From NCBI RefSeq assembly GCF_053078305.1, contig NZ_CP166875.1: DNA of 64,000 nt; one strand, given 5' to 3'. Both the position numbers and the translations under genes were made by a program. Source of the DNA: a plasmid. Below the pieces are notes generated by a model, which was not told where the DNA came from, did no database searches, and saw only the letters and a list, made by a program, of their open reading frames with translations. Positions 11,848 to 30,005 of the stretch are shown here, piece after piece. Position 1 is the first letter of the stretch; every line of letters begins with the position of its first letter.

Positions 11848-13207
11848 ACCTCTTCTGGTTCTTTGTGCCGCTTTACTGACGGTCACACCTGCAGCGTCAG
11901 CGGATGTGAACAGCGACATGAACCAGTTCTTCAACAAGCTGGGCTTTGCCACCAATACCACCCAGGCCGGAGTCTGGCAGGGGCAGGCTGCCGGGTATGC
12001 CTATGGCGGTTCTCTGTATGCCCGTAATCAGGTCAGAAATATCCAGCTTATCTCCATGACACTGCCCGACATCAATGCAGGGTGTGGTGGCATCGATGCC
12101 TATCTCGGCTCATTCAGTTTTATTAATGGCGAGCAGCTGCAGCGTTTTGTTAAGCAGATTATGAGTAACGCGATGGGGTACTTTTTTGACCTTGCCCTGC
12201 AGACAACGGTGCCCGAAATCAAAACCGCGAAAGACTTCCTGCAGAAGATGGCGAATGACATTAACAGTATGAACCTCAGCTCCTGTCAGGTGGCACAGGG
12301 GATTGTCGGAGGATTATTTCCTCAGACTCAGGTGTCACAGCAGAAGGTCTGTCAGGATATTGCAGGTGAGAGCAATATTTTCGCCGACTGGGCCGCGTCC
12401 CGTCAGGGCTGCACGGTTGGGGGGCAGTCATCGTCTGTTCGTGACAAGGCCAGTGACAAAGATAAGGAACGGGTGCTGAAGAACATAAATATCATCTGGG
12501 ACTCGCTGTCCAAAAACAGGATGCTTGATGGTAACAAAGAGCTGAAAGAGTTCATTATGACGCTCACAGGTACGCTGATTTTTGGTGAAGACAGCGAGAT
12601 TACCCCCCTGCCGGCGCGTACCACTGACCGCGATATCCTCCGGGCGATTATGGAGGGGGGAACGGCAAAAATTTACCACTGCAACGATTCGGACAAGTGT
12701 CTGAAGGTGGTGGCGGATGCAAATGTGACCATCGCCCGGGATAAAGCCCTGAAATCACAGATTACAAAACTGCTCACCAGTATTCAGAATAAAGCCGTGA
12801 GTGACACTCCGCTGGATGACAGGGAAAAAGGCTTCATTTCCAGCACCACCGTCCCCGTCTTTAAATATCTTATTGACCCGCAGATGCTCGGTGTGTCCAG
12901 CAGCGTGGTTTACCAGCTGACGGACTATATCGGCTACGACATCATGCTCCAGTACATTCAGGAACTGCTTCAGCAGGCCCGGGCCATGATTGCCACCGGG
13001 AACTATCCACAGACCGTGCTGGACAGTGTGCTGGAGAATCTGAATCAGGCACAGCAACAGATTGCGGTTTTCCAGGGGCAGGTAAAGGTCCAGCAGGATG
13101 CACTGCTGGTTGTTGACCGTCAGATGAGCTACATGCGCCAGCAGCTGTCCGCCCGTATGCTCAGCCGTTACCAGAACAACTATCACTTCGGAGGGAGCAC
13201 GCTGTGA
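11825..13207 (+). CDS. traH: TraH
   Basis: 460 aa with signal peptide; size and synteny match F TraH. Confidence 0.9.
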   Translation: MAIMLRIKPLLVLCAALLTVTPAASADVNSDMNQFFNKLGFATNTTQAGVWQGQAAGYAYGGSLYARNQVRNIQLISMTLPDINAGCGGIDAYLGSFSFINGEQLQRFVKQIMSNAMGYFFDLALQTTVPEIKTAKDFLQKMANDINSMNLSSCQVAQGIVGGLFPQTQVSQQKVCQDIAGESNIFADWAASRQGCTVGGQSSSVRDKASDKDKERVLKNINIIWDSLSKNRMLDGNKELKEFIMTLTGTLIFGEDSEITPLPARTTDRDILRAIMEGGTAKIYHCNDSDKCLKVVADANVTIARDKALKSQITKLLTSIQNKAVSDTPLDDREKGFISSTTVPVFKYLIDPQMLGVSSSVVYQLTDYIGYDIMLQYIQELLQQARAMIATGNYPQTVLDSVLENLNQAQQQIAVFQGQVKVQQDALLVVDRQMSYMRQQLSARMLSRYQNNYHFGGSTL

Positions 13208-16047
13208 ATGAAGTCTATGTGATTGCCGGTGGTGAGTGGTTGCGCAATAACCTGAACGCCATTGCCGCTTTTATGGGGACCCGGACGTGGGATTCCATTG
13301 AAAAAATTGCGCTCACATTATCTGTTCTCGCAGTGGCTGTGATGTGGGTACAACGGCACAACGTGATGGATTTGCTGGGCTGGGTGGCCGTGTTTGTGCT
13401 TATCAGCCTGCTGGTTAATGTCCGCACATCGGTGCAGATTATTGATAACAGTGACCTGGTTAAGGTTCACCGGGTGGACAATGTGCCGGTCGGTCTGGCG
13501 ATGCCACTTTCACTGACGACCCGTATCGGGCATGCGATGGTGGCCGGCTATGAGATGGTGTTCGCTCAGCCGGACAGCGCCACCTACAGCAAGACAGGCA
13601 TGCTGTTCGGGGCGAACCTGATTGTGAAAAGCACCGATTTCCTGTCCCGGAATCCGGAAATCATCAATCTGTTTCAGGACTACGTCCAGAACTGCGTGCT
13701 GGGTGATATTTACCTGAACCATAAATACACGCTGGAAGACCTGATGGCCTCCTCTGACCCGTACACCATAATCTTTTCTCAGCCCAGCCCTTTACGTCAG
13801 GTGCCGAATAATAATTACAGTTTTCTGCAAAGCTCAGAGCCGTTTGTGTCCTGTAAGGACGCATCCGTCGGACTGAAGGATAAGCTGAATTTTGATACGA
13901 ATACCGGAGGCAAGACCTGGAATTATTATGTGCAGCAGATATTTGGCGGCAGGCCGGACCCTGACCTGTTATTCAGACAACTGGTGAGTGACAGTTACAG
14001 TTATTTCTACGGCTCCAGCCAGTCTGCCAGCCAGATTATGCGCCAGAACGTCACCATGAATGCCCTGAAAGAGGGTATCACCAGTAATGCGGCCCGTAAC
14101 GGTGATACCGCCAGCCTGGTGAATCTGGCCACCACCTCATCGATGGAGAAACAGCGTCTGGCACATGTCTCCATTGGTCATGTGCTGATGCGAAACCTGC
14201 CGATGGTACAGACCATTCTGGTGGGCATTACTATTGGTATCTTCCCGCTCCTGGTGCTGGCTGCGGTCTTCAACAAACTGACGCTGTCCGTCCTGAAAGG
14301 CTATGTGTTTGCCCTGATGTGGTTCCAGACTTGGCCGTTGCTGTATGCCATCCTGAACAGTGCCATGACATTCTATGCGAAGCAGAACGGGGCTCCGGTC
14401 GTGCTCTCTGAACTCTCTCAGATACAGCTGAAATACTCCGACCTGGCATCAACCGCAGGTTATCTTTCAGCAATGATCCCCCCTCTGTCATGGATGATGG
14501 TACGAGGCCTTGGTGCCGGATTTTCCAGCGTATACAGCCACTTTGCGTCTTCTTCCATCACGCCAACCGCCAGTGCGGCAGGCAGTGTGGTTGACGGTAA
14601 TTACTCCTACGGCAACATGCAGACGAATAACGTGAACGGCTTCAGCTGGAGCACCAACAGCACCACGTCATTTGGTCAGATGACGCACCAGACCGGTAGT
14701 GGTGCAACCGCCACGCAGACCCGTGACGGCAGTATGGTGATGGACGCCAGTGGGGCAATGTCCCGTTTGCCGGTTGGTATTAATGCAACGCGTCAGATTG
14801 CAGCAGCGCAACAGGAAATGGCCCGGGAGTCGATGAATAAGGCGGAAAGTGCCCTGCATGGTTTCAGCAGCAGTATTGCCAGTGCCTGGAACACACTCAG
14901 CCAGTTTGGCTCTAACCGGGGAAGCAGTGATTCAGTCACCAGTGGCGCTGACAGCACGATGAGCGCGCAGGACTCCATGATGGCCAGCCGTATGCGCAGT
15001 GCGGTGGAAAGCTATGCGAAGGCGCATAATATCAGCGATGAGCAGGCGACAAGAGAACTGGCATCCAGAAGTACGAGAGGTTCTGCGGGGATGTATGGTG
15101 ATGCTCATGCTGAATGGGGGGTTAAACCTAAAATTCTTGGTGTTGGTGGTGGCGCAGGTGTCAGAGGTGGTGGTAGGACAAGTATTGACTGGAATGATGA
15201 GGATGCGCATCAGGCCAGCAGTGGTTCACGGGCCAGCCATGATGCCCGTCATGATATTGATGCCAGAGCTACACAAGACTTTAAAGAAGCAAGCGATTAC
15301 TTTACCAGTCGCAAGGTCAGTGAATCCGGCAGCCATACTGACAATAATGCCGATTCCAGGGTGGACCAGCTTTCTGCAGCCCTGAACTCAGCGAAACAGA
15401 GTTACGACCAGTACACGACGAATATGACCCGCAGCCATGAATATGCTGAAATGGCCTCCCGTACTGAAAGCATGAGTGGGCAGATGAGTGAAGACCTGTC
15501 ACAACAGTTTGCACAGTATGTGATGAAACACGCGCCGCAGGATGCAGAAGCTATTCTGACAAACACCAGTTCACCGGAGATTGCAGAACGTCGTCGGGCA
15601 ATGGCCTGGTCTTTTGTTCAGGAACAGGTACAGCCTGGTGTTGATAACGCCTGGCGTGAATCCCGTGGCGATATCGGTAAAGGAATGGAGAGCGTACCTT
15701 CGGGCGGTGGCAGCCAGGATATTATTGCAGACCATCAGGGGCATCAGGGTATTATTGAGCAAAGAACGCAGGACAGTAATATCCGTAACGATGTGAAGCA
15801 GCAGGTTGATAATATGGTCACAGAATATCGGGGCAATATCGGGGATACTCAGAACAGCATCCACGGCGAGGAAAATATTGTAAGAGGGCAGTATTCTGAA
15901 CTGCAAAATCACCATAAAACAGAGGCATTATCTCAGAATAATAAATATAATGAAGAAAAATCAGCTCAGGAAGGAATGCCCGGTGCTGACAGCCCACAGG
16001 AACTTATGAACAGGGCAAAAGAGTATCAGGATAAGTATAAGCAATAA
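13204..16047 (+). CDS. traG: TraG (mating pair stabilisation / entry exclusion determinant)
   Basis: 947 aa, polytopic N-domain plus hydrophilic C-domain; size and synteny match F TraG. Confidence 0.9.
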   Translation: MNEVYVIAGGEWLRNNLNAIAAFMGTRTWDSIEKIALTLSVLAVAVMWVQRHNVMDLLGWVAVFVLISLLVNVRTSVQIIDNSDLVKVHRVDNVPVGLAMPLSLTTRIGHAMVAGYEMVFAQPDSATYSKTGMLFGANLIVKSTDFLSRNPEIINLFQDYVQNCVLGDIYLNHKYTLEDLMASSDPYTIIFSQPSPLRQVPNNNYSFLQSSEPFVSCKDASVGLKDKLNFDTNTGGKTWNYYVQQIFGGRPDPDLLFRQLVSDSYSYFYGSSQSASQIMRQNVTMNALKEGITSNAARNGDTASLVNLATTSSMEKQRLAHVSIGHVLMRNLPMVQTILVGITIGIFPLLVLAAVFNKLTLSVLKGYVFALMWFQTWPLLYAILNSAMTFYAKQNGAPVVLSELSQIQLKYSDLASTAGYLSAMIPPLSWMMVRGLGAGFSSVYSHFASSSITPTASAAGSVVDGNYSYGNMQTNNVNGFSWSTNSTTSFGQMTHQTGSGATATQTRDGSMVMDASGAMSRLPVGINATRQIAAAQQEMARESMNKAESALHGFSSSIASAWNTLSQFGSNRGSSDSVTSGADSTMSAQDSMMASRMRSAVESYAKAHNISDEQATRELASRSTRGSAGMYGDAHAEWGVKPKILGVGGGAGVRGGGRTSIDWNDEDAHQASSGSRASHDARHDIDARATQDFKEASDYFTSRKVSESGSHTDNNADSRVDQLSAALNSAKQSYDQYTTNMTRSHEYAEMASRTESMSGQMSEDLSQQFAQYVMKHAPQDAEAILTNTSSPEIAERRRAMAWSFVQEQVQPGVDNAWRESRGDIGKGMESVPSGGGSQDIIADHQGHQGIIEQRTQDSNIRNDVKQQVDNMVTEYRGNIGDTQNSIHGEENIVRGQYSELQNHHKTEALSQNNKYNEEKSAQEGMPGADSPQELMNRAKEYQDKYKQ

Positions 16048-16062: not shown

Positions 16063-16566
16063 ATGATAATGAAAAATTTAGCTCATGTTGCTCTGATAAC
16101 TGTGATACAGCTCATTGCCTGTAATCTGGCTGATTGGGGGGGCGCTGAGACAGTTTTTATCCTGTGCTTTATTGTACTATGGCAGGGATTGTTTATATGG
16201 TTGTTTTCTCAAATACGAAAAAAACGGCATGTGTCGGATGAGTTTAAATTCAGTAAAGGCGTTTGGTATATACTGATGCCAGTATCTTCTTTATTCTCTC
16301 CGTTATTAAGCCTGATGACTTTTATCATTGGTACACTATACGAATTAAGGCGAGTTTGTGGTTGTGTAAGTGTAAGAGAATGGATGCAATCTCAGGTAAA
16401 TGAAAACACCAATGAAGAATTGCATCTGGATTTTGATGATGTGAATTTTGATTATGTGGATTTTTATCGTACTAATCCGGCAACAGGATTAGCTATGCAT
16501 GGAGGATTTGATTCAGCAGGAAATACTTTTGGGACTTGTTGGCAGGACTATGATGATAGGCGATAA
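16063..16566 (+). CDS. traS: TraS-like entry exclusion inner membrane protein
   Basis: 167-aa hydrophobic protein between traG and traT. Confidence 0.55.
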
Positions 16567-16597
16567 GAAAACTGTAGCTTGTAATAAAGGTAATTTG

Positions 16598-17329
16598 ATG
16601 AAAACAAAAAAATTGATGATGGTTACCCTGGTCAGTTCCACTCTGGTCCTTTCAGGGTGTGGTGCGATGAGCACAGCAATCAAGAAGCGTAATCTTGAAG
16701 TCAAAACTCAGATGAGTGAAACCATCTGGCTGGAGCCTTCCAGTGAACGCACCGTTTTCCTGCAAATCAAAAACACATCTGACAAGGATATGAGTGGATT
16801 GCAGGCAAAAATCAGTGATGCCGTTAAAGCCAAAGGCTACCAGGTTGTGACCTCACCTGACAAGGCATACTACTGGATCCAGGCCAATGTCCTGAAGGCA
16901 GACAAAATGGATTTGCGGGAGTCCCAGACCTGGCTGAACAGCGGTTATGAAGGTGCCATTGCCGGTGCAGCATTGGGCACCGGCATCACAGGATATAACT
17001 CCAGCTCTGCCGGTGCGGCGCTGGGTGTAGGGATTGCCACAGGGTTGATTGGTATGGCTGCCGATGCAATGGTGGAGGATATCAACTACACCATGATCAC
17101 GGATGTGCAGATTGCAGAGCGGACAACATCTAAAGTCAGAACTGATAATGTTGCTGCTCTCCGCCAGGGAACCTCCGGTGCAAAAGTGCAGACCAGCACA
17201 TCAACCGGAAATCAACATAAATACCAGACCCGTGTGGTATCTAATGCCAACAAGGTTAACCTGAAATTTGAAGAAGCGAAGCCTGTACTGGAAGACCAGC
17301 TGGCTAAATCCATCGCGAACATCCTGTAA
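16598..17329 (+). CDS. traT: TraT surface exclusion lipoprotein
   Basis: Start at MKTKKLMMV with lipobox LSGC; 243 aa, near-identical to remembered F TraT; perfect 7-bp-stem hairpin immediately downstream (17341..17364). Confidence 0.92.
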
Positions 17330-17388
17330 ATTACCCATCCGGCCCGGACAGATTGTACCGGGCCGATATTCCTGCCCCGGATGAATAC

Positions 17389-17649
17389 ATGAACCGTGCA
17401 GAATCTCGTCTCTCGCAGGTACTCTTTCTGCTGGGCTATGACAGTGAAAAGTATCCTGAGCATGTATGTCGGGAGTTATTAAAAGAACTTTACCGGTTTG
17501 CTGATGCAACCGGAGATTCTGAACTGGCCATAGCCTGCCAGAGATACCTGACAGCACTGGAACCGTTCTCTGCATATGAGATCGGCGTAAGCGCAACAGA
17601 ATATCTTCCTGTGAGTGAATATCCGACCGGACGTCGCAGAAGAAAATAG
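17389..17649 (+). CDS. hypothetical protein in traT/traD insert
   Basis: ORF 17353..17649 begins with TTG inside the traT hairpin; first ATG at 17389; weak ribosome-binding site. Confidence 0.3.
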   Translation: MNRAESRLSQVLFLLGYDSEKYPEHVCRELLKELYRFADATGDSELAIACQRYLTALEPFSAYEIGVSATEYLPVSEYPTGRRRRK

Positions 17650-17716
17650 CTGACGCCTCGCGTTGCTCGTTGTCCAACCCCGGGAAGTAACAAAATAAAT
17701 TTTGTCACTTCCCGGC
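17641..17716. repeat. conserved ~75-bp hairpin element, copy 1 (second copy at 29931..30005)
   Basis: Shared flanks TGACGCCT(T)CGCGTTGCTC(A)GTTGTCCAACCCCGG ... CCCGGCGTTTC around a stem-loop; both copies abut a stop codon. Confidence 0.7.
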
Positions 17717-17816
17717 GTTTCCGAAATAAATATGAGAACACTGAACGGTTGTGCAAATTCTTTGTGCGACCGTGAAGTGTTGCCGGCGAAGCCGGAAGCT
17801 TCCGGAGAAAGTCATT

Positions 17817-18548
17817 ATGACATCAGACAATATCGCTGAATATGTTGGTGAGAATAATCAATTTACTGAGAAGCCTGTAACTGAATACTCCCCGGTGATA
17901 CAGGATAATACAGCGACCACAAAAGATTATCTGTACAGCAATAATATTGATACTGACCTTTTAGTGGTTATCGGAGGGCTTATTGTTATATTGTTTCTCA
18001 TGATGCTTGTCATGTACTTTATTAATTCTCTCAGGCATAAGGAATTAACTGAAATACTGACAAAAATATCTTTTCCTGAGAAATCCGGGAGCAATCCGCT
18101 TAAGCCGGAAGAGGGCCGCTGTAATTTGTTGTCCCTGTGTGTGCTGGCCCCGGTATTCTGTACCCCCAAAAAACTGGCAGAAGTCTCCAGACAGATCATC
18201 GTGACCAGTGCGAAGGAAATTGCCTGGACGCCCGGGAGTAGCCGTATTGATGGTGAGCAGGAAGAAAATATTACCTGGTCTCTGTCGTCACAGACTCATG
18301 CCGATAAATACGATCTCATCAATAAAACATCCCGTGTTTCTCCTGACAGTGGCCACTTTTATGAACCGGGCACGGCTCTGGATTATCGTGAGCGGGTACG
18401 CCTTTTTGTTCAGATCCAGTATTCACACGAGAGTGACTGGTCTGAAATATTGCGCCTGACTGATATCGTGCTGGAAAAAGTTTCTTCCGGCAGACCAGCA
18501 GGCGGCTATCACCACCGGTATACAGGGTATACATGGTTTGTTCTGTGA
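17817..18548 (+). CDS. hypothetical membrane-anchored protein in traT/traD insert
   Basis: ATG at 17817 preceded by ggaga; one TM helix near residue 70; not an F tra protein. Confidence 0.45.
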   Translation: MTSDNIAEYVGENNQFTEKPVTEYSPVIQDNTATTKDYLYSNNIDTDLLVVIGGLIVILFLMMLVMYFINSLRHKELTEILTKISFPEKSGSNPLKPEEGRCNLLSLCVLAPVFCTPKKLAEVSRQIIVTSAKEIAWTPGSSRIDGEQEENITWSLSSQTHADKYDLINKTSRVSPDSGHFYEPGTALDYRERVRLFVQIQYSHESDWSEILRLTDIVLEKVSSGRPAGGYHHRYTGYTWFVL

Positions 18549-18603
18549 ATGTATTCCACACCGCTCTTTTCTGCTCTGTACCTGACTTTACCGGAGTTTC
18601 ATC

Positions 18604-20802
18604 ATGAGTTTTAACGCAAAGGATATGACCCAGGGCGGTCAGATTGCGTCCATGCGTATCCGCATGTTCAGCCAGATCGCCAATATCATGCTTTACTGCC
18701 TGTTTATTTTTTTCTGGATCCTCGTTGGTCTGGTTTTATGGGTAAAAATAAGCTGGCAGACGTTTGTGAACGGCTGTATTTACTGGTGGTGCACCACGCT
18801 GGAAGGCATGCGGGATTTAATCAGGTCCCAGCCGGTCTATGAGATCCAGTATTACGGCAAAACCTTCCGGATGAACGCGGCTCAGGTACTGCATGATAAA
18901 TACATGATCTGGTGCGGTGAGCAGCTATGGTCTGCATTCGTTCTGGCGTCTGTCGTGGCCCTGGTTATCTGCCTGATCACCTTCTTTGTTGTCTCCTGGA
19001 TTCTGGGGCGTCAGGGTAAACAGCAGAGTGAAAATGAAGTCACAGGTGGTCGTCAGCTGACTGACAATCCGAAAGAGGTTGCCAGGATGCTGAAAAAAGA
19101 CGGCAAGGACTCCGATATCCGGATTGGCGATCTGCCGATTATCCGGGATTCTGAAATCCAGAATTTCTGTCTGCACGGCACGGTCGGGGCCGGTAAGTCG
19201 GAAGTTATCCGTCGTCTGGCCAACTACGCCCGTCAGCGCGGTGATATGGTGGTGATTTATGACCGATCAGGGGAATTTGTTAAAAGTTACTATGACCCGT
19301 CCATCGATAATATCCTGAATCCGCTGGATGCCCGCTGTGCCGCCTGGGATTTGTGGAAGGAGTGCCTGACACAGCCGGATTTTGATAATACGGCAAATAC
19401 CCTGATCCCGATGGGCACAAAAGAAGACCCGTTCTGGCAGGGCTCAGGACGCACCATTTTTGCGGAAGCGGCGTACCTGATGCGTAATGACCCCAACCGC
19501 AGCTACAGCAAACTGGTGGATACACTACTCTCCATCAAAATTGAAAAACTGCGTACCTTCCTGCGTAACTCACCGGCGGCCAACCTGGTGGAAGAGAAAA
19601 TCGAGAAAACGGCGATTTCCATCCGTGCTGTGCTGACCAACTACGTGAAAGCCATCCGTTACCTGCAGGGGATTGAGCATAATGGTGAGTCCTTCACCAT
19701 CCGTGACTGGATGCGGGGTGTCCGTGAAGATAAGAAAAACGGCTGGCTGTTTATTTCGTCGAATGCCGACACCCATGCTTCCCTGAAACCGGTGATCTCC
19801 ATGTGGCTGTCCATCGCCATTCGTGGCCTGATGGCGATGGGGGAGAACCGTAACCGTCGTGTGTGGTTCTTCTGTGATGAGTTACCCACGTTACACAAAC
19901 TGCCGGACCTGGTGGAGATCCTGCCGGAAGCCCGTAAGTTCGGTGGCTGTTATGTGTTCGGTATCCAGTCCTATGCCCAGCTGGAAGATATCTACGGTGA
20001 GAAATCGGCAGCCTCGCTGTTTGACGTCATGAACACCCGTGCCTTTTTCCGTTCCCCCAGCCATAAGATTGCAGAGTTCGCTGCCGGTGAAATTGGTGAG
20101 AAAGAGCACCTGAAAGCCAGCGAGCAGTATTCCTACGGTGCTGATCCGGTACGTGACGGGGTATCGACCGGTAAGGATATGGAGCGCCAGACGCTGGTCA
20201 GTTATTCCGACATTCAGTCTCTGCCGGATCTGACCTGTTATGTCACCCTGCCCGGACCGTATCCGGCAGTAAAACTCTCCCTGAAATATCAGGCACGACC
20301 GAAGGTTGCTCCGGAGTTTATTCCGCGTGACATCAATCCTGAAATGGAGAACCGTCTGAGTGCCGTACTTGCCGCAAGGGAAGCAGAAGGTCGTCAGATG
20401 GCCAGCCTCTTCGAACCGGATGTCCCGGAGGTTGTTTCCGGAGAAGACGTGACTCAGGCTGAACAGCCGCAACAGCCGCAACAGCCGCAACAGCCGCAAC
20501 AGCCGCAACAGCCGCAACAGCCGGTGTCTCCTGCCATCAACGATAAGAAGTCAGATGCAGGTGTGAATGTTCCGGCAGGGGGGATCGAGCAGGAGCTGAA
20601 AATGAAACCGGAAGAAGAGATGGAACAGCAACTGCCACCCGGGATCAGTGAATCCGGTGAAGTGGTGGATATGGCCGTTTATGAGGCATGGCAACGGGAG
20701 CAGAATCCGGATATCCAGCAGCAGATGCAGCGCCGTGAAGAGGTGAATATCAACGTGCACCGGGAGCGCGGGGAGGATGTTGAGCCGGGAGATGATTTCT
20801 GA
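18604..20802 (+). CDS. traD: TraD type IV coupling protein
   Basis: 732 aa, N-terminal TM helices, Walker [10 protein letters not shown]-terminal QQP repeats; N-terminus matches remembered F TraD. Confidence 0.92.
20464..20523. repeat. tandem 9-bp repeat (CAGCCGCAA-type, ~6 units) encoding the PQQ repeat of the TraD C-terminal tail
   Basis: Read directly from sequence. Confidence 0.9.
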
Positions 20803-29532: not shown

Positions 29533-29931
29533 ATGAAAGGTGAACAAATGAACTATCAGGCAGTATCAGAATTAATCACATCGTCTAATCATAATGTTCT
29601 TATTGTGGGGGACTCAGCTTCTGAAGTTGATAGCTTTTTAAATAAACTGAATATTACTGATTATAAGTATTATGATTTCAGCCAGATTTACAGTTGTTCT
29701 GACAGAACATTAAATGATTATGCGGTTATTTTTATCAGGGATGCACTGAACGCCAGTGAGCATATTATTATTTTTAATTGTACAGGATGGCCTGATTTGA
29801 ATAATGAATCTGCCGTCATGCAGTTTGCCAGAGTGGCACGAAAATCAGGAAAACAACTGATAGTCGCAGTAAGAGAACAGGATATGAAAAAAATGGAAGC
29901 AGAGTTTGGAAGGATCATAAAAATCCACTGA
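29533..29931 (+). CDS. hypothetical protein
   Basis: 132-aa ORF; stop abuts conserved hairpin element copy 2. Confidence 0.4.
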   Translation: MKGEQMNYQAVSELITSSNHNVLIVGDSASEVDSFLNKLNITDYKYYDFSQIYSCSDRTLNDYAVIFIRDALNASEHIIIFNCTGWPDLNNESAVMQFARVARKSGKQLIVAVREQDMKKMEAEFGRIIKIH

Positions 29932-30005
29932 CGCCTTCGCGTTGCTCAGTTGTCCAACCCCGGGGACGGGAAAAAGCAAGTTTTCCCCGCCCCCGGCGTT
30001 TCTGT
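29931..30005. repeat. conserved ~75-bp hairpin element, copy 2
   Basis: Same conserved flanks and stem-loop position as copy 1. Confidence 0.7.

Follow-up and report, generated by a model that had tools for sequence, protein, structure and literature searches.

The distal transfer (tra) operon of plasmid contig NZ_CP166875.1 carries a 1,274 bp gap (positions 17330–18603) between traT and traD, the latter coding for the type IV coupling protein, and the question raised by this locus is what fills the gap and whether its occupant is a newcomer to the operon or one of its older members. The analysis covered 64,000 nucleotides of this contig, referred to here as the window, in which traT, traD, the parts of the slot between them, and both copies of the 75 bp element described below lie on the plus strand. 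A first-pass annotation, prepared from the sequence alone, had described the gap as an insert of approximately 1.2 kb carrying an unknown membrane-anchored protein. What is found is the R100-type version of the distal tra slot, composed of the 3′ flank of traT, a leader with three hairpins, and yhfA, a gene that was named long ago in plasmid R100 and is thus already known, if uncharacterized. It is a genuine, widespread, and dispensable protein-coding gene and not a new insertion. To this the present work adds the union of Escherichia coli and Klebsiella open reading frames (ORFs) into a single family, a predicted membrane topology, a domain with an apparently orphan fold, a record of repeated loss, and a conserved RNA leader. 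These features of the slot cannot be ascribed to chance, because both the family of the second ORF and the hairpin block recur in thousands of plasmids.

Identity of yhfA

The second ORF of the gap (ORF2, positions 17817–18548) encodes a protein of 243 residues and is preceded by the Shine–Dalgarno sequence GGAG (17804–17807), located 9 nt ahead of its ATG. As judged by sequence comparison, its identification as the yhfA gene of R100-type plasmids is near-certain. A tblastn search aligned residues 1–242 with 86.8% amino acid identity (E = 2e-124) to positions 75462–76187 of NC_002134, between traT and traD of R100/NR1; this counterpart, WP_000199905, has 245 residues and is annotated as hypothetical (“conserved hypothetical protein YhfA”). 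The full-length similarity to the R100 protein, the position between traT and traD on the tra strand, and the N-proximal transmembrane (TM) segment together with the C-domain motifs described below all place ORF2 in the YhfA family, and the neighbors of its C-domain model in AlphaFold-DB bear the name YhfA. A published plasmid comparison had located YhfA beside traD in R100 and not in F (PMC2762410). The sources label the protein hypothetical throughout, with one automatic UniRef label reading “conjugative transfer protein”, and a search of the literature for functional or mutant data on yhfA, which extended to transposon screens of pKpQIL, returned annotation-level mentions only. The first-pass annotation was borne out as far as the single strong hydrophobic segment is concerned, and both ORFs (86–98 and 243 residues, the larger with one TM helix and a good ribosome-binding site) stand ahead of traD where it had placed them, but the protein that it took for an unknown one had already been annotated as YhfA of R100.

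The window gene and its R100 counterpart share the slot, the strand, the hairpin block upstream, and 86.8% amino acid identity over their full length. They differ in that the window gene is preceded by an additional small ORF (ORF1) and by a different traT terminator, and in that, compared with R100, it is a mosaic over its 3′ two-thirds, the synonymous divergence (dS) being 0.07–0.09 in codons 1–100 and 0.55 in codons 101–243. The window version represents a minority allele, which is present at 95% identity or above in just 24 records of PLSDB.

Architecture, Predicted Topology, and Fold of YhfA

The protein consists of an acidic N-terminal tail (residues 1–47), a TM helix (residues 48–70, LLVVIGGLIVILFLMMLVMYFI, encoded at 17958–18026), a basic juxtamembrane stretch, and an α/β C-terminal domain spanning residues ∼99–243 (18111–18545), with the element order β-α-β-β-loop-β-α-β-β. 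The TM helix stands well apart from the remainder of the chain, its best 19-residue Kyte–Doolittle window scoring 3.2 and the next best one 1.24. A candidate lipobox in the segment CNLLSLC was considered and rejected, since position −1 holds an unsuitable residue and neither the P0147 nor the pKpQIL type, both introduced below, conserves the cysteine. In all five diverged lineages that were compared, an acidic flank precedes the TM helix and a basic one follows it, a distribution from which the positive-inside rule predicts an N-out/C-in topology, in which the acidic tail of approximately 45 residues would be periplasmic and the conserved domain cytoplasmic. The cysteines of the C-terminal domain are not conserved and occur in an odd number in the window protein, a pattern that would fit a cytoplasmic location.

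The C-terminal domain is also the part of the protein in which the invariant positions are found. Across the five lineages these comprise P139–G140, R143, D145, W154, G179, P184, Q201, G229–G230, and G237–Y238, and they fall into the motifs W/Y-x-P-G-x-x-R-x-D, Q-I/L-Q, and G-G-x6-G-Y-T/S. An AlphaFold2 model of this domain reached a predicted local distance difference test (pLDDT) score of 78 and a predicted template modeling (pTM) score of 0.79. Scans of Pfam, NCBIfam, PHROGs, and PADLOC assigned no family to any YhfA member, the best matches in the scans of ORF1 and ORF2 being at noise level (SpoIIM, E = 0.13; phrog_24535, E = 0.26), and searches of the PDB with sequence profiles built from three successively broader YhfA alignments returned nothing. 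Fold searches of the PDB with the C-domain model gave generic α/β-sandwich matches only. In AlphaFold-DB, the relatives detected by fold are uncharacterized proteins of 183–447 residues from Pantoea, Citrobacter, Enterobacter, Kosakonia, and Pseudomonas syringae (e.g., A0A3A3Z845, A0AAP9QIY0, and A0A8A4K8L9), which differ from YhfA in that the identity is 9–15%, many of them are longer, and none is named. Judged from the model, the C-terminal domain of YhfA thus appears to represent a fold with no solved relative.

Distribution, Remote Homologues, and Loss

In PLSDB, yhfA was found on 1,936 plasmids, all but 20 of which (1,916/1,936) are conjugative; the hosts are predominantly Escherichia (1,394), followed by Klebsiella (365), Shigella (97), and Salmonella (58). 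The gene accompanies approximately half (1,936 of 3,821) of the plasmids that carry the intergenic hairpin block. Large clusters of full-length proteins (447, 1,341, and 2,474 members) exist in the databases, as do many frameshifted copies and fragments. Word-based searches and hidden Markov model (HMM) searches over billions of proteins retrieved close relatives and frameshifted fragments only, and an HMM search of 1.84 billion representatives likewise returned the YhfA family and its fragments, with the exception of one weak match, P0144 (E = 2e-4). This match led to a branch of 230-residue proteins, P0147, with 675 cluster members, which shows 36% identity to the window YhfA over the C-terminal 138 residues (E = 2e-25). 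The P0147-type homologue comes from E. coli plasmids that share just 43% identity in TraD with the window; there it immediately follows traT and precedes traD, and it keeps a ribosome-binding site, GGAG, 6 nt ahead of its ATG. Another type, P0075, likewise from an E. coli lineage and with 47–48% identity overall, displays the same order, with the homologue between traT and traD.

The most remote member is WP_004198206 of pKpQIL, a 229-residue protein from the traT–traD slot, which aligned with the family profile in hhalign with a probability of 96% (E = 4.7e-9, 145 columns) and which had been missed by BLAST and HMM searches seeded with the window protein. Proteins of this type occur on 2,284 plasmids, mostly from Klebsiella. 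Like YhfA, WP_004198206 has an acidic tail, a TM helix, a basic stretch, and a C-terminal domain, it occupies the same slot, and homologous I2/I3 hairpins (see below) lie upstream of its gene; its identity to the window YhfA is only 22–24%, though TraD is 73% identical. Taken together, these alignments place a single gene family between traT and traD in four or more diverged F-like lineages. Since the slot is filled in so many of them, the presence of yhfA is most parsimoniously regarded as ancestral, and the gene has probably been lost in F rather than inserted in the plasmid studied here. The description of the gap as an insert therefore holds only relative to F and pMAR7, in which 252 bp separate traT from traD and contain the hairpin block but not yhfA; elsewhere, the gene is part of thousands of plasmids.

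Direct evidence of a deletion in a successful lineage comes from approximately 600 Klebsiella IncFIIK plasmids (e.g., pKPN1482-1, positions 2501–2623 of locus L023), of whose yhfA homologue only 40 codons survive, a stump (MAISEPVMSLETHKLMPGDIYPHPAMGEAYSLQRREVCFR*) that stops short of the TM helix. Repeated loss of this kind implies that yhfA is dispensable. The gene can also outlast its neighbors. In the conjugative IncFIB/FIC plasmid NZ_CP024291 (locus L004, 1731–2998), a reverse-strand gene for a heavy-metal-binding domain and an ORF for a hypothetical protein of 262 residues stand in place of traS and traT; the hairpin block and an intact, 98%-identical yhfA are retained before traD. A profile scan of the ORFs in the window revealed no paralogue of YhfA elsewhere, and a scan of genome contigs returned two mis-binned or tiny contigs only.

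Other genes have been observed at or near the same place. In plasmids of the P0147 type (L010, 6700–7203; L013, 6701–7846), a DUF2726 gene begins 7 nt past the yhfA homologue, and some of these plasmids also carry a reverse-strand vapBC pair before traD; in F, vapBC sits between traD and traI. In plasmid A of E. coli M15 (L015, 3865–3978), an ORF of 37 residues encoding a small hydrophobic peptide, MSIFKILDQMFPGNPFTWLFAVLIINVLVLCLLRKRK, is located between the hairpin block and traD, at the place of yhfA. The distal tra operon accepts cargo insertions at gene boundaries.

Selection and Rate of Evolution

The pairwise ratio of nonsynonymous to synonymous substitution rates (dN/dS) of yhfA is 0.20–0.29 overall, 0.17–0.20 in the C-terminal domain, and 0.3–0.7 in the first 100 codons, with dS reaching 1.6 in these comparisons. 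The gene is under purifying selection and is a real coding gene. Consistent with that, the motifs P-G-x-x-R-x-D, W154, Q201, G-G, and G-Y are kept at 22–36% identity. For traT and traD, values of 0.02–0.11 were obtained between closer lineages, and the difference in pace is visible in the protein identities as well: between the window and pKpQIL, identity is 24% for YhfA, 73% for TraD, 83% for TraT, and 58% for TraG, and between the window and a P0075-type plasmid it is 48% for YhfA and 95% for TraD.

The alleles of YhfA and TraS assort independently. The window and R100-type plasmids have YhfA proteins that are 87% identical and TraS proteins that are 17% identical, and the reverse is seen between the R100 and P0075 types, with 86% identity in TraS and 49% in YhfA. 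It has to be noted that the location next to the exclusion genes traS and traT, pointed out by the first-pass annotation, is real, but does not imply a shared function, given this independent assortment and the persistence of an intact yhfA where traS and traT have been replaced.

Expression and the Structured RNA Leader

No σ70 promoter matching at least 9 of 12 positions was detected in the region 17300–17830, which contains two weak matches of 8/12 only, and no hairpin terminator is present in the 55 nt spacer between yhfA and traD (18549–18603), in which the Shine–Dalgarno sequence of traD, GGAG, occupies positions 18593–18596. The common strand and this short gap with neither terminator nor promoter suggest that yhfA and traD are cotranscribed. 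Published RNA-seq data for pBIC1a, a pKpQIL-like IncFIIK plasmid, list reads per kilobase per million (RPKM) of 231 for traS, 282 for traT, 8 for the ORF between traT and traD, 7 for traD, and 10 for traI (PMC6286996). Expression thus drops approximately 30-fold after traT, and the ORF in the slot is at the level of traD.

The stretch across which this drop would occur is rich in RNA structure. Past the traT stop codon, a GC-rich hairpin (17340–17365) is formed by the arms CGGCCCGG (17340–17347) and CCGGGCCG (17358–17365) around a 10 nt loop, with no U-tract. The stem is perfect, as the first-pass annotation had stated, and measures 8 bp, not the 7 bp given there. The predicted energy is −19.9 kcal/mol (z = −4.8), and 0 of 200 shuffled sequences fold as well. 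This hairpin is probably a 3′-end, attenuator, or stabilizer structure of the traT message, and traT of pKpQIL is also trailed by a similar GGCCCGG hairpin.

Further downstream, a block of 148 nt (17650–17797) contains three hairpins, I1–I3, and folds with −62 kcal/mol (z = −6.5). Its left half (17650–17724) is the conserved 75 bp hairpin element that the first-pass annotation had rightly placed between the two ORFs, and it comprises a conserved left flank, CTGACGCCTCGCGTTGCTCGTTGTCCAACCCCGG, and hairpin I1 (arms 17676–17696 and 17699–17719). A second copy is present in the window at 29928–30002, after an ORF of 132 residues (29533–29931) and upstream of the RepFII replicon; it has the same flanks and a different but pairing stem, and the alignment of 17650–17721 with 29928–30002 gives 78.7% identity over 75 nt (E = 6e-9). 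Over 5,000 plasmids carry the version of the second copy, for the most part at the 3′ end of a DUF2726 gene. The copies have the flanks CTGACGCC...CCAACCCCGG and CCGGCGTTTC in common, and their stems differ yet pair. Five different left-hand contexts meet the element exactly at CTGACGCC, and this edge looks like a recurrent recombination junction or module boundary. Readings of the left flank as an inverted repeat of the Tn3 family or as an oriT/nic site were dropped, as inspection by eye only found no terminal TAAG and no nic consensus. Hairpin I1 is variable: it shows compensating stem changes in F and pMAR7, is replaced in Klebsiella, and is precisely absent in M15 plasmid A.

The right half of the block behaves differently from I1. 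Hairpins I2 (17737–17781) and I3 (17783–17795) are located upstream of yhfA, or of traD where yhfA is absent, and they persist where yhfA has been deleted. All 21 of their base pairs are kept in each of eight sequences from F, R100-type, and Klebsiella IncFIIK plasmids (L022, 11674–11775, and L017, 3666–3760, among them), eight sequences that represent only two or three independent lineages; three of the pairs show compensatory double changes, and controls obtained by sliding the pairing pattern pair at 32–44%. The plus strand folds with −33.3 kcal/mol and the minus strand with −20.7 kcal/mol, and since it is G–U pairs that favor the sense strand, a function of I2/I3 at the RNA level is indicated. 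I2/I3 is a conserved sense-strand RNA structure. The covariance models of Rfam 15 gave 0 matches at E ≤ 1 in the region 17200–18700, and a terminator scan found no canonical terminator in 17340–17800, the tails of the hairpins being AUAUUCC, CGUUUCC, and none.

The same region of F resembles that of the window in its 148 nt hairpin block, which is 93% identical and in the same place, and differs in that both yhfA and ORF1 are missing and the hairpin after traT is another one (GGAGGCTGG...CCGGCCTCC). Terminator activity after traT in F has reportedly been studied by Jalajakumari et al. in 1987. For the hairpin set as a whole, we infer a role as attenuator, processing, or stabilizer structures that would separate an abundant traS/traT message from a scarce yhfA–traD–traI message.

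Possible Roles of YhfA

The explanation that we favor is that YhfA is a dispensable inner-membrane accessory of the traD unit. As a whole it is evenly poised between holding and failing. There is next to no doubt about what the gene is; the proposed function is the weak point. According to this model, the hairpins after traT would halt or process most transcripts of the tra operon and of the traS/traT region, and a minority of read-through transcripts would carry yhfA–traD–traI, with YhfA being made at the low level of TraD. The protein would then become anchored in the inner membrane, its short acidic N-terminal tail lying in the periplasm and its α/β domain of approximately 145 residues on the cytoplasmic face, where it may serve as a nonessential, fast-evolving accessory of the transfer apparatus, most plausibly by modulating the membrane-bound TraD/relaxosome step. 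For an accessory of an F-type type IV secretion system, cotranscription with the operon is to be expected, and gene order, the terminator-free gap, and the traD-like RPKM in pBIC1a all favor it.

Several points weigh against this explanation. The positive-inside rule is the single source of the topology, and a tail of 47 residues with nine acidic ones must cross the membrane with no signal peptide; the full-length AlphaFold2 model is poor (pLDDT 41), and only that of the C-terminal domain was used. The ORF of pBIC1a is assumed to be the yhfA homologue from its position in the published table, not from its sequence, and the hairpins have no U-tracts, so that they are not canonical terminators. 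The tie between YhfA and TraD consists solely of gene order and a shared level of expression, and YhfA diverges far faster than TraD, which is unexpected for a tight partner and recalls genes of conflict or specificity such as traS. Lastly, the slot holds obvious cargo elsewhere (DUF2726, vapBC, and the 37-residue membrane peptide), and YhfA could be cargo too.

This last point leads to the principal competing explanation, in which YhfA is a passenger at a permissive tra-operon hot spot, engaged in conflicts of the plasmid with other plasmids, phages, or the host and not in its own DNA transfer; its possible roles would include fertility inhibition of rival plasmids, protection from male-specific phages, and defense or antidefense. 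We consider it possible, if rather unlikely. Unrelated genes do occupy the traT–traD and traD–traI slots, ORF1 and the vapBC pair after traD in F included. YhfA outpaces the Tra core, comes in discrete allelic types, and is an internal recombination mosaic, and its repeated loss carried no apparent cost to successful lineages. However, none of PADLOC, PHROGs, Pfam, and NCBIfam yields a match for it, and its pairwise dN/dS is approximately 0.2 and not above 1. In contrast to the other occupants, it is also constant beside traT in four to five lineages, even where TraD is just 43% identical, and this fixed position suggests long vertical association rather than repeated acquisition.

A wider version of the accessory model would take YhfA and its remote homologues in pKpQIL and the P0147 and P0075 types as an unrecognized ancestral accessory of F-type transfer in enterobacteria, a cytoplasmic domain of a fold with no solved relative that is tethered to the inner membrane. 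It would act at the coupling protein or relaxosome step, either tuning the transfer of its own plasmid or sabotaging the coupling protein of rivals. The turnover of alleles would then reflect conflict between plasmids, and the I2/I3 leader would set the dosage of yhfA, traD, and traI. This proposal is speculative, and we hold it to be unlikely in its full extent.

A role of YhfA as a third exclusion-type protein, blocking redundant matings together with TraS and TraT, is improbable. What speaks for it is that yhfA lies immediately 3′ of traS–traT, that its product is membrane-anchored, and that its allelic diversity recalls that of TraS. Nevertheless, YhfA shares no sequence or profile similarity with either neighbor (the NCBIfam TraT model matches traT only), its alleles do not track those of TraS, it survives intact in a plasmid whose traS and traT have given way to other genes, and the slot ORF of pBIC1a is expressed at the level of traD, approximately 30-fold below traS and traT. 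The predicted C-in topology would, moreover, mean that the conserved domain does not face the incoming mating bridge. F excludes efficiently with no yhfA at all.

Finally, the view that the ORFs are nonfunctional relics and that only the RNA block matters, for the expression of traD or the stability of the traT message, has very little probability and is excluded for yhfA by selection and fold, because dN/dS of 0.17–0.29 over dS of up to 1.6, motifs retained at 22–36% identity, a confidently folded C-terminal domain, and large clusters of full-length proteins (447, 1,341, and 2,474 members) outweigh the greater frequency of the block (3,821 vs 1,936 plasmids), its survival before traD in F and in those Klebsiella plasmids that have deleted the gene, the many frameshifted yhfA copies, and the state of ORF1, whose copy in M15 plasmid A has decayed and whose pO113-like copies recombination has truncated. 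For ORF1 alone this view stays viable.

ORF1 and the Lineage-Specific Flank of traT

The first ∼320 bp of the gap, containing the different traT terminator and ORF1, differ from both R100 and F and constitute a lineage-specific addition. ORF1 (17389–17649; WP_001077900, hypothetical) would encode an acidic, probably helical protein of 86 residues with an RRRRK tail. It is confined to one lineage, and its coding status is uncertain. RefSeq uses the ATG at 17389; an alternative TTG start at 17353, which lies inside the hairpin, would extend the protein to 98 residues. The only diverged relative is located after traT in E. coli M15 plasmid A, where 55% identity over 42 residues is followed by a frameshift or truncation. 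As for the possibility of degenerate remnants, raised by the first-pass annotation, the two ORFs therefore part ways: ORF2 is conserved, under purifying selection, and has kept its ribosome-binding site, whereas ORF1 is in part such a remnant in its sole diverged relative.

In pO113-like IncFIB/IncI-type plasmids (L005, 2501–2931, in NZ_CP061760; L006, in pO113), a solitary traT is followed by the same 120 bp as in the window, and the start of ORF1, ∼13–20 codons long, continues in frame into a C-terminal remnant of a pore-forming colicin (annotated as “colicin-like pore-forming protein”, 123 residues).

ORF1 could represent either a small protein of this lineage or a by-product of recombination. 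That it is a functional small protein of this traT lineage, e.g., a regulator or an immunity-like factor, is a tentative suggestion on the doubtful side. The 86-residue frame is intact in 12 complete plasmids of PLSDB (97.7–100% amino acid identity), the exact protein is found on at least 1,000 draft contigs, copies at 98.8% DNA identity still encode an identical protein, and a homologous ORF1 start (MNRAEFRLSQALILLGYDEDKYP) follows traT in the diverged plasmid. Against this stand the weak Shine–Dalgarno sequence (GGA), the lack of a homologue beyond the frameshifted or truncated one, the lack of any family or structure match in NCBIfam, PHROGs, PADLOC, Pfam, and the PDB, and a variation too small for selection to be measured.

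Neighboring Genes

The gap is part of a distal F-type tra operon with the order traG (13204–16047), a 167-residue exclusion-type ORF, traT, the gap itself, traD, and traI, and the near-identical plasmid NZ_CP045714 carries the same annotation of these tra genes. The left boundary of the slot is traT (16592–17329), coding for the lipoprotein of surface exclusion and complement resistance; it matches the NCBIfam equivalog model NF010291 with 520 bits, above the cutoff of 445, and is annotated as traT in NZ_CP045714. The right boundary is traD (18604–20802), assigned by annotation. The 167-residue ORF at the position of traS (16063–16566) is labeled merely “surface exclusion protein” in RefSeq and has no match in NCBIfam; its product is 17–28% identical to TraS of F, R100-type, pKpQIL, and the other compared lineages, and it is a distinct exclusion allele. 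In TraD, a run of PQQ repeats at residues ∼600–625 (window positions 20400–20520) is shorter in TraD of M15 plasmid A. It is a length-variable low-complexity linker ahead of the C-terminal tail.

Significance

In E. coli and Klebsiella, extended-spectrum β-lactamase and carbapenemase genes travel chiefly on F-like plasmids of two types, R100/R1 and pKpQIL, whose transfer operon is regarded as nearly completely catalogued. Over 4,000 sequenced plasmids nonetheless hold, right before the gene of the coupling protein, a conserved and selected gene for a membrane protein that has never been studied. It does not represent a new kind of system, but it offers a cheap and clear target for a knockout in the plasmid family of greatest clinical importance, and if yhfA were to do nothing, it would be a well-documented case of neutral baggage in the tra operon.

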